From Alphaproteobacteria bacterium (GTDB lineage: Bacteria > Pseudomonadota > Alphaproteobacteria > CAAGCB01 > CAG-977): a stretch of 64,000 bases of DNA. The notes beneath the pieces are model-generated. The model ran no database searches and was not told where the DNA came from. It was given only the letters and a program-made list of their open reading frames with translations. Location: the NCBI GenBank assembly GCA_017616015.1, contig JAFZYY010000019.1:486-64485 (forward strand). Reading direction: 5' to 3'. Position numbers and translations under genes: made by a program. Below are positions 15,392 through 22,292 of the stretch, piece by piece (the first letter of the stretch is position 1; each line of letters opens with the position of its first letter).

Positions 15392-16285
15392 TTATTTCTT
15401 TTTCTGCATTCGCAACGCTTCGGCGCCGGAAACAACGTCCAATAATTCCGTTGTGATGTTTTCCTGACGCATTTGCTGATATTCCAGATTCATCGCTTCC
15501 AGATTTTCATCGATATTCTTTTCCGCCGCTTGCATTGTCGTTAAGCGCATATGGTGTTCCGCCGACAAAGCGTCCGTAATCGCCGTAGACAATTCGATCA
15601 GCAACCTTTCCCGCATCAAAGCGGAAAAAATCTGTTCCGGCGGCAGAGTATACGTCGGAAAATTATGTCCCGGCCACCCGATGTTTTTCAATCGTTCCAG
15701 CCATTCCGTTCCTAACGGCATCAGTAAGGAGGAGGTCGGTACAACGCCGGTTCCCTGCTTTTGGCTGTAAAAAATATAAACGTGTGTCGTTCTTTCCGTC
15801 TGGATATGCTCCTGCGCCGTTATCAGAACGGAAGCCGCCGTTTTGCTGACCGCTTTAACCGAATTGGAAACAGGGTAGCTTTCAACCAGGTTGCGTTCAT
15901 CGCGCATCAACTGGGCGATGATTTGCCGGCCGATGGCAATAAAAGCCGTTTGTTCGATTTTAAATCCTTTTTCCGTCAGGAATTTTTCGGCAAAGCGCAC
16001 GACTTCGCGATTCATTTTGCCAACCAGTCCGGTATCCGATCCGATAACAACCGCTAAAGCGCGTTTTGCTTCCGGTTTGACGGGCGTTTCTTTCGGCAGT
16101 TTCAAATCGCCGTTTTTCATCAACGCAACAGCGCCTAAATTTATCGTCCGGCCGTATTCCACCAAAGACTTTAGCGCCGCGTCGTATTGAATAATGCTGA
16201 CGGCAGACAGCGATTTCATCGTTGACACGATTGACCGCAAATCCTGCGTTGTTTTGATGCGCTTTTGAAGCCCTTCAATATCCAT
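15392..16285 (-). CDS. atpG: N-type ATPase gamma subunit
   Basis: Gamma-like N-terminus (IKTTQDLRSIVSTMKSLSAVS) and its position as the last gene of the operon. Confidence 0.8.
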   Translation of the reverse strand: MDIEGLQKRIKTTQDLRSIVSTMKSLSAVSIIQYDAALKSLVEYGRTINLGAVALMKNGDLKLPKETPVKPEAKRALAVVIGSDTGLVGKMNREVVRFAEKFLTEKGFKIEQTAFIAIGRQIIAQLMRDERNLVESYPVSNSVKAVSKTAASVLITAQEHIQTERTTHVYIFYSQKQGTGVVPTSSLLMPLGTEWLERLKNIGWPGHNFPTYTLPPEQIFSALMRERLLIELSTAITDALSAEHHMRLTTMQAAEKNIDENLEAMNLEYQQMRQENITTELLDVVSGAEALRMQKKK

Positions 16286-16291
16286 GCCGCA

Positions 16292-17821
16292 CTAAACCTG
16301 TTTGACGGTTAAAACCCGTTCGTTGATCAAAGCTTCCCTGATATCGGCCGCTAACTGTTTTTTATTTTCAGCGGACAGTTTTTCGCGGCGCAGAATAATA
16401 TCCGTTATTTCGCGATGCTTCGTTTTCATCAGATTGGAAATGATAGCGTACGCTTTATCCCGTAATTTGTCGGATACGTTGTCCAGCAATCCTTCCGTCG
16501 TCGCAAACAGCACGGCAATCTGATCGACAACCGGCACCGGAGCGAATTGCTTTTGCTGCATTACGGCGCGAATGGCGCGGCCGCGTTTCAGCTGTCTTTC
16601 CGTATCGGCGTCCAGATGCGAACGGAACTTCGCGAAACTCTCCAGTTCTTCAAACTGAGAGAACGCCAGCTTTAACGGTCCGACCAGAGAACTGTATGCG
16701 GGCAGTTGCGCGTCGCCGCCCACGCGGGAAACGGAACGTCCCGTGTCAATCGCGGGCAGAATGCCTTTCTGATACATCGGCGAAGACAGATAGATCTGTC
16801 CGTCCGTAATGGAAATGATGTTCGTCGGAATATAGGCTGAAATGTTCTGCGCTTCCGTTTCGACGATCGGCAGAGCTGTTAAGGAACCGCCGCCGAATTC
16901 GGGACGCAGGCGCGTCGAACGCTCCAATAAGCGCGAATGAATATAGAAAATATCGCCGGGGAAAGCTTCGCGTCCGGGAGGACGGCGCAACAGCAAAGAC
17001 AGTTCGCGGTAAGCGCGGGCGTGATTGGTTAAATCGTCGTAAATCACCAGAACGTCCTTGCCCTTTTCCATAAAGTATTCGCCGATCGCTGTCGCCGCAT
17101 ACGGAGCGATATATTGCATGCCGGCCGTTTCATCACCTGAAGCGGCGACGACAATCGTGTTTTTCAACACATCATATTTTTTCAAATTGTCGACTACACG
17201 GGCGATTGCCGTTCCGCGTTGGGCGATTGCGCAGTAAATACAGATAACGCCCGTATCTTTCTGATTAATGATCGTATCGATGGCCAAAGCGGTTTTTCCG
17301 GTCTGACGGTCGCCTAAAATCAGTTCGCGCTGTCCGCGTCCGATCGGCGTAAAAGAGTCTATCGCTTTAATCCCTGTCTGCAAAGGTTCGGACACAGGGG
17401 AACGGGACATAATCGGGTAGGCTTCGCGTTCGACTTTGCGACGATGGACGGTCACAATCGGTCCCTGTCCGTCCAAAGGATTGCCCAGCGGATCAATCAC
17501 GCGTCCGAGCAACCGTTCCCCGACGGGAACGTCCACAACCCGGCCGGTGCGGTAAACGCGGTCTCCCGCTTTGATTTTTTCGGGTTGGTTCAGGAAAACG
17601 ACGCCGACGGAATCGGGAGCCAATGTGAACGTCATTCCCATAACGCTGTTCGGGAACATCAGCAATTCTTCCATCTGGACATTATCCAATCTGGATACTT
17701 CAGCTGTGCCGCCGGATACGGAAGAAACCGTGCTGATTTCTTCCACGCTTAATTTGTCCGATTGCAAATCAAGCGTATTCTGAACAACGTTAAAGACATC
17801 TTTTACTGTTTCTACCAGCAT
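16292..17821 (-). CDS. atpA: N-type ATPase alpha subunit
   Basis: Walker A GDRQTGKTALAIDTI, 509 aa. Confidence 0.9.
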   Translation of the reverse strand: MLVETVKDVFNVVQNTLDLQSDKLSVEEISTVSSVSGGTAEVSRLDNVQMEELLMFPNSVMGMTFTLAPDSVGVVFLNQPEKIKAGDRVYRTGRVVDVPVGERLLGRVIDPLGNPLDGQGPIVTVHRRKVEREAYPIMSRSPVSEPLQTGIKAIDSFTPIGRGQRELILGDRQTGKTALAIDTIINQKDTGVICIYCAIAQRGTAIARVVDNLKKYDVLKNTIVVAASGDETAGMQYIAPYAATAIGEYFMEKGKDVLVIYDDLTNHARAYRELSLLLRRPPGREAFPGDIFYIHSRLLERSTRLRPEFGGGSLTALPIVETEAQNISAYIPTNIISITDGQIYLSSPMYQKGILPAIDTGRSVSRVGGDAQLPAYSSLVGPLKLAFSQFEELESFAKFRSHLDADTERQLKRGRAIRAVMQQKQFAPVPVVDQIAVLFATTEGLLDNVSDKLRDKAYAIISNLMKTKHREITDIILRREKLSAENKKQLAADIREALINERVLTVKQV

Positions 17822-17838
17822 ACTCTACCTGCTTTTTG

Positions 17839-19997: not shown

Positions 19998-20440
19998 TCT
20001 TCGTTTGCCTCCTCTTCTTCGTCTTCGAATTCGCCCGAAACAAGCTCTTCCTCTTTTTCGGTCGGCGTCATAGCCGCGTTTCTGGCTTCTTCCACCAGAG
20101 CGTTGCGGCGGTTTTGTTCTTTTTGCGCGCGTTCGATACCTTCGCGTTTCAGCCACTGCCAGGCTCCGACCGTACCGAAGATAAGTCCTAACAGCAGGAA
20201 GTTCAGCGTCCATGAAATCGATCCGACTTTGTGATGCGCGTCCAGCCACCGCCCCAACAGAATGCCGAGAATGGTCGGAAGCGGAATATTCCAGCCTAAA
20301 GCCCCCAGAAACGCCAATCCTTTCGCCGGAGAAAAAGCTTCTTTGTCCGTTTTATTGATCAAATGACGGGAAGCCCTCTTGGCTAACCGTTCTGCTAACG
20401 CATTGTCGGAGTTCTTTTTTTCAGGTGTTTCAAAGCTCAT
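19994..20440 (-). CDS. atpQ: N-ATPase accessory protein AtpQ (AtpI/AtpZ-like)
   Basis: 148 aa with two TM helices (LAFLGALGWNIPLPTILGILLG; LNFLLLGLIFGTVGAW) and an acidic tail. Position between atpC and atpR. Confidence 0.6.
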   Translation of the reverse strand: MSFETPEKKNSDNALAERLAKRASRHLINKTDKEAFSPAKGLAFLGALGWNIPLPTILGILLGRWLDAHHKVGSISWTLNFLLLGLIFGTVGAWQWLKREGIERAQKEQNRRNALVEEARNAAMTPTEKEEELVSGEFEDEEEEANEE

Positions 20441-20442
20441 GT

Positions 20443-20865
20443 TTACCCCTTCAACTGATCCGGCTGATTGTTCAAATTGCGCCGCAGTACCTGACGCGTC
20501 AGACCGATTTCCAAACGCGCCATCGCCGCATTGACAATCTTGCGATTTTCCTCATCTTTTTTAAATTCTTCGGAAATCGTCCGCGACAATTCGGCCAGAT
20601 TTTCGCTGATAACGGCGCGACGCACCGAAAGCAACACCGTCGTATTCGCTTTAACCAAGATTCCTTTATCGCAAGCCATATAAATTTCTTTGCCGGCTTT
20701 CTTTCCGTCTTCGATTTCAAACGATACCAGTCCCGGAACGATCACCGTCGCAAAGTCGGCATGTTTGGGCAGGAACGTAAACGACCCGTCCAGCGCGTCA
20801 AAACGCACCCGGCTTACGCGTTCGTCAACTACAATTCCGGAAGGTGTCAGCGTTTTCAGTCTCAT
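20443..20865 (-). CDS. atpC: N-type ATPase epsilon subunit
   Basis: 140 aa with an epsilon-like beta-sandwich N-terminus ([26 protein letters not shown]). Overlaps the atpD stop. Confidence 0.8.
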
Positions 20866-22292
20866 GCGGCGGACGCGGCCTCCTTCATTTTTTCGGCTTT
20901 GGCCAGAACGTCTTCGATCGTGCCGACCATATAGAAAGCGTTTTCGGGCACTTCGTCCATTTCGCCGGACAAAATCTTTTCACACCCGCGCAAAGTATCC
21001 TCCAGCTCGACGGAGCGCCCTTCCATACCCGTAAAGTGGAAAGTCGTGAAGAACGGCTGAGTCAGGAAGCGTTCCAGCTTGCGCGCTTTTAATACGGTTT
21101 TCTGATCGTTTTCAGGCAGTTCGTCAAAGCCCAGCATCGCGATAATGTCTTTTAATTCTTCGTATTCCGCCAAAGTCCGGCGCACGGCGGTCGCTACTTT
21201 GTAATGACGTTCCCCGACCGTCAGCGGCGTCAGCATGTTCGATCCCGATGCCAACGGATCGACCGCGGGATACAATCCCTGCGATACGCGGGCGCGCGAC
21301 AGAACGATATTGGAGGACAAGTGCGCGAATGTATGGCTGGCCGACGGGTCTGTTAAATCGTCCGCCGGCACATAGACTGCCTGAATGGACGTAATGGCGC
21401 CGCTTGCCGTGGAAGCGATGCGTTCCTGCAAAGAAGCGATTTCGGTCGCCAAAGACGGCTGATAGCCTACGCGCGACGGCATCTGCCCCATCAGAACGGA
21501 AATTTCGGAGCCGGCCTGCACGAAACGGAACACGTTGTCAATCAGCAACAAAACGTCCTGCTTCTTTTCATCACGGAAATATTCCGCCATCGCCAGAGCC
21601 GCATGCGCCACACGGAAACGAATGCCGGGCGCTTCGTTCATCTGGCCGAACATCATGATCGTCTTGTCCAGAACGCCGGCATCGCGCATTTCGCGGTAAA
21701 GTTGTTCGCCTTCGCGGCAGCGTTCGCCGACGCCGCAGAACAAGGAAACGCCTTCATAACGGCCGACCATGTTATTAATCATTTCGGTAATCAAAACCGT
21801 TTTGCCGACGCCCGCGCCGCCGAACAATCCGGCTTTTCCGCCGCGTTCCATCGGCGCCAGCAAGTCAATCGCCTTAATGCCCGAAACAAACACCTGAGAC
21901 GCCACGCTGCGCCGTTCCAAAGGCAAAGAATGATTGTGAATGGGGCGGCGTTCCGTTTCTTCCAACGGCTGACCGCCGTCGATCGCGTCGCCGAACACAT
22001 TGAACATACGTCCTAAAATTTTATCGCCGACGGGGACGCTGAGCATATGTTCCGTATCAACAACAGCCTGACCGCGGGACAGTCCTCTGGTCGGCCCTAA
22101 AGCCAGCCCGCGAACGGTCTGAGCGTCCAGATGCGCTTCGACTTCGATAGCAAGAGAGCCGTCTTCCCCTGTTCTTAATTCGTTATAAACGGCGGGCAGT
22201 TTCTCTTCAAACCGGATATCGACGACGCTGCCCTGAATGGCTGTAATATATCCGATGTTTTGCTGTTGTTTGTTTTCTTCTTTGTCTGACAT
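20862..22292 (-). CDS. atpD: N-type ATPase beta subunit
   Basis: Walker [12 protein letters not shown], 476 aa. First gene of the operon. Confidence 0.9.

Follow-up and report, generated by a model that had tools for sequence, protein, structure and literature searches.

A chromosomal N-type ATPase operon, probably encoding a Na+ pump, in an uncultured alphaproteobacterium of the ruminant gut

The N-ATPases were named and defined as a family by Dibrova, Galperin & Mulkidjanian in 2010 (PMC2881411) and were catalogued genome-wide in 2025. Most accounts treat them as mobile accessories, patchily distributed among marine, halotolerant or pathogenic bacteria; they have been published as additional copies beside an F- or A-type enzyme (PMC2881411 and a second survey), and are seen in the literature as pumps, not synthases (PMC2881411, PMC5376962). 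Their hallmark subunit, AtpR—about 100 amino acids (aa) long, with three transmembrane (TM) segments and a conserved Arg in two of them—has been described as the 'tell-tale sign' of the family (PMC2881411). The present study concerns a locus within a stretch of 64,000 nucleotides (64 kb) of contig JAFZYY010000019.1 from an alphaproteobacterium, the whole of which is designated here as the window. The locus is a complete N-type ATPase operon and, as such, an unremarkable representative of a family already known. It is probably a functional (N1No), chromosomal and vertically inherited operon, the product of which would most likely act as an ATP-driven Na+ export pump. Whereas the family is known mainly as a mobile accessory, the operon appears here as a core operon, conserved and vertically inherited in uncultured, anaerobic Alphaproteobacteria of the gut—a clade within which the predicted coupling ion varies and to which belongs the CAG:977 group, one that has figured in the discussion of how mitochondria originated.

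Operon layout and family assignment

The operon consists of nine intact and consecutive open reading frames (ORFs) on the minus strand at positions 15392–22292, the two bounds being the stop codon of the gamma gene and the start codon of the beta gene, respectively. Their order is beta, epsilon, AtpQ, AtpR, a, c, b, alpha and gamma (atpDCQRBEFAG), and they are tightly packed, the successive gaps being −4, 2, −4, −7, 22, 44, 17 and 6 nt. The same nine products have been called by independent gene callers on four public contigs, and the family matches span E-values from 1e-222 (beta) to 5e-15 (AtpR, PF12966). An earlier model-made reading of the window (the sequence-only reading) had given the same order, strand and coordinates, and the nine ORFs confirm it to the base. 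Its two further observations—the absence of a separate delta gene and the presence of two small membrane-protein genes between atpC and atpB—also proved correct: the operon contains no OSCP-only ORF, the OSCP match being located inside the b subunit, and the two small products have two and three hydrophobic segments, respectively.

The comparisons given below were made with the N-type operons of PCC 7002 plasmid pAQ7 and Azospirillum plasmid p3 and with the F-type operons of E. coli and Sinorhizobium. Concerning the F1 part, the N-type beta subunit (atpD, 20862–22292, minus strand like all nine genes, 476 aa) scores 739.5 bits with TIGR03305 (alt_F1F0_F1_bet) against 643.1 with the generic TIGR01039, carries the Walker A motif GGAGVGKT at residue 158 and the catalytic loop GERCREG, and is 62.3% identical to its pAQ7 counterpart against 52.3% to that of E. 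coli. The start of the epsilon gene (atpC, 20443–20865, 140 aa; PF02823) overlaps the atpD stop by 4 nt, and its product reaches 109.3 bits with TIGR03166 (alt_F1F0_F1_eps), i.e. over the cut-off of 100.1, compared with 32.3 for the generic TIGR01216. The N-type alpha subunit (atpA, 16292–17821, 509 aa), with its Walker A motif GDRQTGKT at residue 170, scores 715.8 bits with TIGR03324 (alt_F1F0_F1_al) versus 628.2 with TIGR00962, and the gamma subunit (atpG, 15392–16285, 297 aa), encoded by the final gene of the operon, 233.1 bits with TIGR03323 (alt_F1F0_F1_gam) versus 119.0 with TIGR01146; the direct comparison of gamma yields 148 bits to the PCC 7002 N-type and 67 to the E. coli protein.

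As for the membrane and stator subunits, the Fo a subunit (atpB, 18967–19692, 241 aa) has five hydrophobic segments, the essential Arg166 in the motif RLFGN, a score of 256.5 bits with TIGR03306 (altF1_A) compared with 120.5 for the generic TIGR01131, and 42.7% identity to the PCC 7002 N-type a. The long b subunit (atpF, 17839–18621, 260 aa; TIGR03321 alt_F1F0_F0_B, 178.7 bits, versus 56.6 for the generic TIGR01144) is composed of an N-terminal TM anchor, the b coiled coil (PF00430, residues 8–135) and a C-terminal delta(OSCP)-like domain, matched by PF00213 at residues 162–243 with 25.3 bits (cut-off 22.3). AtpR (atpR, 19686–19997, 103 aa, three TM segments) matches PF12966 with 56.1 bits (cut-off 26) and TIGR03165 with 44.4 bits, the latter being under its cut-off of 55.5. 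Its two arginines are Arg51 in TM2 and Arg81 in TM3; among the aligned homologues the TM2 Arg is present in all, and the TM3 position is occupied by Arg, in a few of them by Lys. The 103-aa product was called identically by independent gene callers on the four public contigs. AtpQ (atpQ, 19994–20440, 148 aa) is a small membrane protein with two TM segments that matches TIGR02230 (69.7 bits, cut-off 46.7) and PF09527 (39.4 bits, cut-off 26.6), and in the profile search it gave no match to PF03899, the family of genuine AtpI. A search of solved structures found no homologue of either AtpR or AtpQ. It should be noted that AtpQ ends with an acidic C-terminal tail (19994–20140) of 48 residues, 17 of which are Asp or Glu; the tail is absent from other N-ATPases, with AtpQ of about 100–120 aa, and is restricted to the closest gut clade, where its length and charge are conserved but its sequence is not.

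For all seven subunits shared with F-ATPases, the N-specific TIGR model thus beats the generic F-type one; among the TIGR families the N-type models are the best for all nine proteins, two NCBI 'PRK' models scoring marginally higher for c and b. Each subunit of the window is also nearer, by bit score, to the pAQ7 N-ATPase than to the F-type enzyme of E. coli. In the neighbour-joining trees of alpha and beta, in which E. coli and Sinorhizobium are the only two F-type outgroups, the window, the N-type references and the sampled relatives are split from the F-type at 100% bootstrap. The 80 homologues closest to the window in beta, out of 185,579 species genomes, have the N-type gene order only, as read in the parts of the contigs examined; between epsilon and a, nearly all of them possess two small ORFs.

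A canonical F-type ATP synthase with merely rearranged genes is, on this evidence, practically out of the question. The core subunits do match generic F-type models too, with beta and alpha exceeding the generic cut-offs, and the NCBI names for these products are plain 'F0F1 ATP synthase' subunits; however, the presence of AtpR, the absence of a delta gene, the better score of the N-specific model for each subunit, the fully supported N clade and the N-type order in all 80 nearest relatives speak against it. The canonical organization, with a separate delta gene and the order atpBEFHAGDC or, in Alphaproteobacteria, atpHAGDC plus atpIBEFF', is not seen here, beta and epsilon coming first and AtpR and AtpQ being inserted. 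A rearranged canonical operon was thus ruled out by the profile scores, AtpR, the missing delta and the trees. The assignment made in the sequence-only reading, a complete N-type operon, holds for the gene order, AtpR, AtpQ, the long b without delta, the c subunit with two Glu residues and the placement in the N clade. The comparison with N-ATPase references that it had proposed places the locus on the same side, a and c matching N-type models best and being nearer to pAQ7, and alpha and beta falling into the N clade.

The c subunit, coupling ion and proposed mechanism

The c subunit (atpE, 18666–18944, 92 aa) is a hairpin that scores 109.4 bits with TIGR03322 (alt_F1F0_F0_C) against 44.0 with the generic TIGR01260. 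Its ion site, a helix-1 Glu (GWAEGY) together with VETSAIY in helix 2, is of the two-carboxylate Na+ type. Aligned to Q32/E65/S66/T67/Y70 of I. tartaricus, the window protein has Glu at position 32, followed by Glu65, Thr66, Ser67 and Tyr70, and therefore fits the Na+ rule of ProAD, [Q/E]-Xn-E-[S/T]-[S/T/Q]-x-x-Y, with the order T-S instead of S-T. Among solved structures, it is matched best by the Na+ c-rings of A. woodii, F. nucleatum and I. tartaricus, with E-values between 9e-21 and 3e-12. The coupling ion of the enzyme is thus probably Na+, and from the motif E-T-S with two Glu residues both Na+ coupling and the usual ATP-driven Na+ export are predicted.

By homology to F-ATPases, ATP hydrolysis in alpha3beta3 would turn gamma-epsilon and the c-ring, each c subunit carrying one ion that would be bound by the helix-1 Glu, the helix-2 Glu-Thr-Ser and Tyr. 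The ion would be taken up from the cytoplasm, transferred from c at Arg166 of the a subunit and released outside via subunit a, with the b subunit forming the stator and its C-terminal part of delta presumably standing in for the separate delta gene. AtpR, and perhaps AtpQ, would probably serve in the assembly or chaperoning of the c-ring or in the regulation of a ring with two Glu residues. The rumen is a Na+-rich medium. Export of Na+ could provide a fermentative gut bacterium with a sodium-motive force and Na+ homeostasis, supporting transport and perhaps motility. The link to salt or alkaline tolerance drawn in the sequence-only reading found no support, this being an unlikely context for an anaerobe of the rumen or gut.

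Several points weigh against the proposal of an N-type Na+ export pump. Six N-specific NCBIfam scores, as well as that of AtpR with TIGR03165, are just under the curated cut-offs, the six pointing to a mildly divergent branch. The ion specificity of this clade rests on a sequence rule, and the sister sub-clade (loci L014, L017, L019 and L062, Acetobacter sp. CAG:977 among its members) exhibits E-T-G-x-x-Y, i.e. is devoid of one Na+ ligand, so that the Gly in the c motif of the CAG:977 group predicts H+ there. The sole N-type c-ring tested biochemically, that of B. pseudomallei, is H+-specific (PMC5376962), with Met in the place of the Ser found here. Finally, the direction as a pump rather than a synthase would follow from the rule that an N-ATPase is 'always second'.

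An N-ATPase coupled to H+, i.e. an ATP-driven proton pump for pH homeostasis or membrane potential in the mildly acidic rumen, is consequently to be weighed, although it seems unlikely. The c17 ring of B. pseudomallei has the same two-Glu arrangement and is a proton ring nonetheless (PMC5376962); 893 of the 1807 catalogued N-ATPases are predicted to be H+-coupled (PMC11738941), and the E-T-G-x-x-Y motif of the CAG:977 sub-clade points in the same direction. The c subunit of the window, however, possesses the full published Na+ motif—hydroxyls at both positions after the Glu, the Tyr and the helix-1 Glu—whereas the second of the two positions is occupied by Met in B. pseudomallei, and the solved rings that match best are Na+ rings. 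Coupling to Na+ is therefore retained here as the probable one.

Across the related operons, the ion-site motif is E-T-S in the window and the loci L007–L020 as opposed to E-T-G in the CAG:977 group, a second gut group having E-S-T or E-T-T, a distribution that suggests switching between predicted Na+ and H+ coupling inside one vertically inherited operon. In c helix 1 (18850–18900), the packing motif is rich in Ala, reading GGAAAVGWAEG where N-type rings usually have GSIGPALGEG; changes from Gly to Ala accompany a larger stoichiometry in other rings, as discussed for B. pseudomallei (PMC5376962).

Host, descent and the question of a second rotary ATPase

The exact proteins of the operon are found on ruminant gastro-intestinal metagenome contigs and in metagenome-assembled genomes (MAGs) labelled by NCBI as 'Alphaproteobacteria bacterium'; the host is an uncultured alphaproteobacterium of the ruminant gut and the operon is chromosomal. 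The window has the gene content of an ordinary chromosome (gltX, dapF, thrB, ispH, pepA, corA, sua5, acnB, gltA, purA, trkH and flagellar genes), and the GC content at third codon positions (GC3) is 0.57 for the operon and 0.60 ± 0.04 for the host. The codon-usage distance of the operon to host genes is 0.056, random subsets of host genes reaching a maximum of 0.059. Against three relatives, the operon shows a synonymous divergence (dS) on a par with its ClpB-like and aminotransferase neighbours, and the ratio of nonsynonymous to synonymous divergence (dN/dS, dapF being left out of the comparison) amounts to 0.03–0.23 over all nine genes—0.03–0.07 for beta and 0.03–0.13 for alpha—which indicates strong purifying selection.

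The ClpB-like gene adjoins the operon throughout the closest clade, CAG:977 included. In both trees, a single clade with 100% support unites the N-ATPases from two groups of gut Alphaproteobacteria, with at least 45 species representatives between them, found in human, ruminant and other guts. The locus is most simply read as the result of a single acquisition long ago, with vertical transmission within gut Alphaproteobacteria since then. A recent horizontal acquisition was ruled out by the host-like codon usage and by the dS equal to that of the neighbours. The description 'laterally transferred' in the sequence-only reading is thus right for the family, often found on plasmids, but not for any recent event in this copy, in view of its host-like codons, matching dS and position in one clade.

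It should be pointed out that the whole operon (15392–22459, with its upstream spacer) occupies the same place as in most close relatives (loci L007, L009, L010, L013, L015–L020 and L062) but in inverted orientation. In those relatives the ClpB-like gene lies immediately upstream of atpD in the same orientation, whereas in the window and in L012 it is situated downstream of atpG, with which it is convergent. No convincing inverted repeats flanking the operon, as a possible cause of the inversion, were found.

Could the operon be a decaying, non-functional relic of an old transfer? Degenerate or partial N-ATPase loci have been reported in a survey from Chlorobaculum tepidum and Nitrosococcus halophilus; here, however, none of the nine ORFs is disrupted, the catalytic residues are retained, the above dN/dS values are low throughout and the gene calls are identical on independent assemblies, so that a relic is very improbable. 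Pseudogenization was ruled out by the intact ORFs, the functional residues and the low dN/dS.

The sequence-only reading had predicted that the actual H+-ATP synthase would be encoded elsewhere in the genome. The question of whether the operon encodes an accessory pump or the only rotary ATPase of its lineage was approached by several searches. When the nine proteins were compared by tblastn with the 64-kb window, only the cross-match between alpha and beta was obtained and no paralogue, and when the E. coli and PCC 7002 proteins were added, the N operons accounted for every match in 86 loci with a combined length of 1.4 Mb. A protein search with the Sinorhizobium F-type AtpD as a probe returned exclusively Rhizobiales among the best 120 of 8000 scored candidates. 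An attempt to extend the window by looking up exact proteins yielded no record for the last gene, and for the first gene a contig ending about 2 kb upstream. As far as the literature on the ATP synthases of the RF32, Rs-D84 and CAG genomes is concerned, no paper addresses them, the Rs-D84 paper saying only that 'some genomes encode F0F1'.

Against this background, the operon might be the sole, reversible rotary ATPase of the lineage, one that replaced the ancestral alphaproteobacterial F1Fo and acts as the main energizer of the membrane, possibly as a Na+-driven ATP synthase; this appears doubtful. The operon does behave like a core gene, with its at least 45 species representatives in one clade at 100% bootstrap, its dS equal to that of the flanking housekeeping genes, its equally constrained alpha and beta and its host-like codon usage. 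The absence of any other atp gene from the window and from the 1.4 Mb of related loci agrees with it as well, although the lack of a second operon in 64 kb tells almost nothing for a genome of about 2 Mb. Related bacteria, for example CAG:977, are anaerobes with pyruvate:ferredoxin oxidoreductase and [FeFe]-hydrogenases. The GTDB release surveyed by ProAD probably included gut alphaproteobacterial MAGs of this kind. An N-only genus, T78, has been documented, but that GTDB-wide survey singles out T78 alone in this respect (PMC11738941), and the additional copies described by two surveys likewise speak against a sole N-ATPase here.

In its widest form, for which our expectation is similarly low, the N-ATPase would be the sole rotary ATPase across a large anaerobic clade of the gut and rumen, having been acquired once by its ancestor and inherited vertically since, with the mitochondrion-like F1Fo replaced and the ion switching between Na+ (E-T-S, E-S-T, E-T-T) and H+ (E-T-G). 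If so, the rule that an N-ATPase is always the second one would be broken far beyond the single genus T78, N-ATPases could be the primary energizer or synthase of a cell, and the view that they cannot take the place of a primary ATPase would need revision. If, on the other hand, the lineage has another rotary ATPase, the operon is a routine Na+ pump.

Other features of the window and the closest known systems

Upstream of the operon, a spacer of 167 nt (22293–22459, minus strand), rich in A+T, separates atpD from thrB, located upstream on the same strand; by its position, it is presumed to be the promoter and leader region. A scan with the sigma-70 consensus gave no more matches than in shuffled sequence and none in the spacer, which also exhibits no Rfam family and no significant RNA structure (z = −0.6); a search for tRNA found none. 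At the other end, a bidirectional intrinsic terminator (15347–15380)—a G+C hairpin between an A-run and a T-run—is common to the operon and the convergent ClpB-like gene, with folding energies of −16.3 kcal/mol (z = −4.8) along the strand of the operon and −21.8 kcal/mol (z = −6.2) along the opposite one, a U-run following the hairpin in each case.

The protein at 13199–15346 is of the Clp/Hsp100 type, with 715 aa and a double AAA+ module, in which the Clp N-terminal domain was not detected and the C-terminal tail, about 150 residues long, is Pro-rich and of low complexity. At 1560–5076, there is a low-GC island (GC 31–37% and GC3 0.28, compared with about 50% and 0.60 for the host; codon-usage distance to the host 0.24) encoding an EcoRI-type adenine methyltransferase, a C5-cytosine methyltransferase and two ORFs without a family. 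The island is most likely a horizontally acquired restriction-modification cassette and is also present on an ENA contig. A 920-aa protein (5517–8279) of unusually high GC (0.58, GC3 0.70), situated between two low-GC segments, has a C-terminal helicase domain of the DinG/Rad3 type as its sole match. The segment 34006–46344 contains a circularly permuted ATP-grasp/Alpha-E fusion beside a transglutaminase-like gene, followed by a bacterial alpha-2-macroglobulin of 1926 aa paired with a bifunctional penicillin-binding protein (transglycosylase and transpeptidase). Finally, a compact overlapping cluster at 48797–54382 encodes aconitase B and citrate synthase together with a protein of 593 aa that matches monomeric isocitrate dehydrogenase only weakly and in part—the oxidative branch of the tricarboxylic acid cycle in an apparent anaerobe.

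Among the described systems, the N-ATPases of PCC 7002 (pAQ7) and Acaryochloris marina (pREB4) share with the window the identical gene order, the absence of delta, the long b and the two-Glu c (PMC2881411), as well as a beta subunit 62–64% identical and the same clade in the tree. They are borne by plasmids of marine cyanobacteria, whereas the window copy is chromosomal in a gut anaerobe and bears no sign of recent transfer; their c motif is E-S-T with GSIGPALGEG in helix 1, as opposed to E-T-S, GGAAAVGWAEG and, additionally, the 48-residue acidic tail of AtpQ in the window. The N-ATPase of Azospirillum brasilense plasmid p3 has the gene order of the window and a beta 54% identical; it branches outside the clade of the window and the other sampled N-ATPases, from which it follows that the gut copies are not recent derivatives of such plasmids. 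The names given by PGAP in this operon are 'AtpZ/AtpI family protein' for AtpQ and 'ATP synthase subunit I' for AtpR. Many plasmid or chromid annotations of an 'F0F1 ATP synthase' are N-type operons, the order having been checked for Azospirillum p3 and PCC 7002 pAQ7 only; further plasmid matches come from Cereibacter, Legionella and Sphingobium.

The N1No of B. pseudomallei represents the same operon type, having the helix-1 Glu, the helix-2 Glu and Tyr, and Arg164 in the a subunit corresponding to Arg166 of the window; its c has Thr62-Met63 after the Glu, i.e. an incomplete Na+ site, in contrast to the complete Thr-Ser of the window (PMC5376962). With the c-ring of F. nucleatum (3zk1) the window shares the two-carboxylate motif (GEGYA ... 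AESTGIY), and with that of A. woodii (4bem) the Thr directly after the Glu; both of these, and I. tartaricus (1yce), belong, however, to canonical F-type operons with delta that encode ATP synthases, the window being otherwise N-type. The genus T78 of the Chloroflexota is, like the clade of the window, anaerobic and equipped with an N-ATPase throughout the lineage (PMC11738941); its enzyme is of the H+ type and the sole rotary ATPase of the genus, whereas the ion predicted for the window is Na+.

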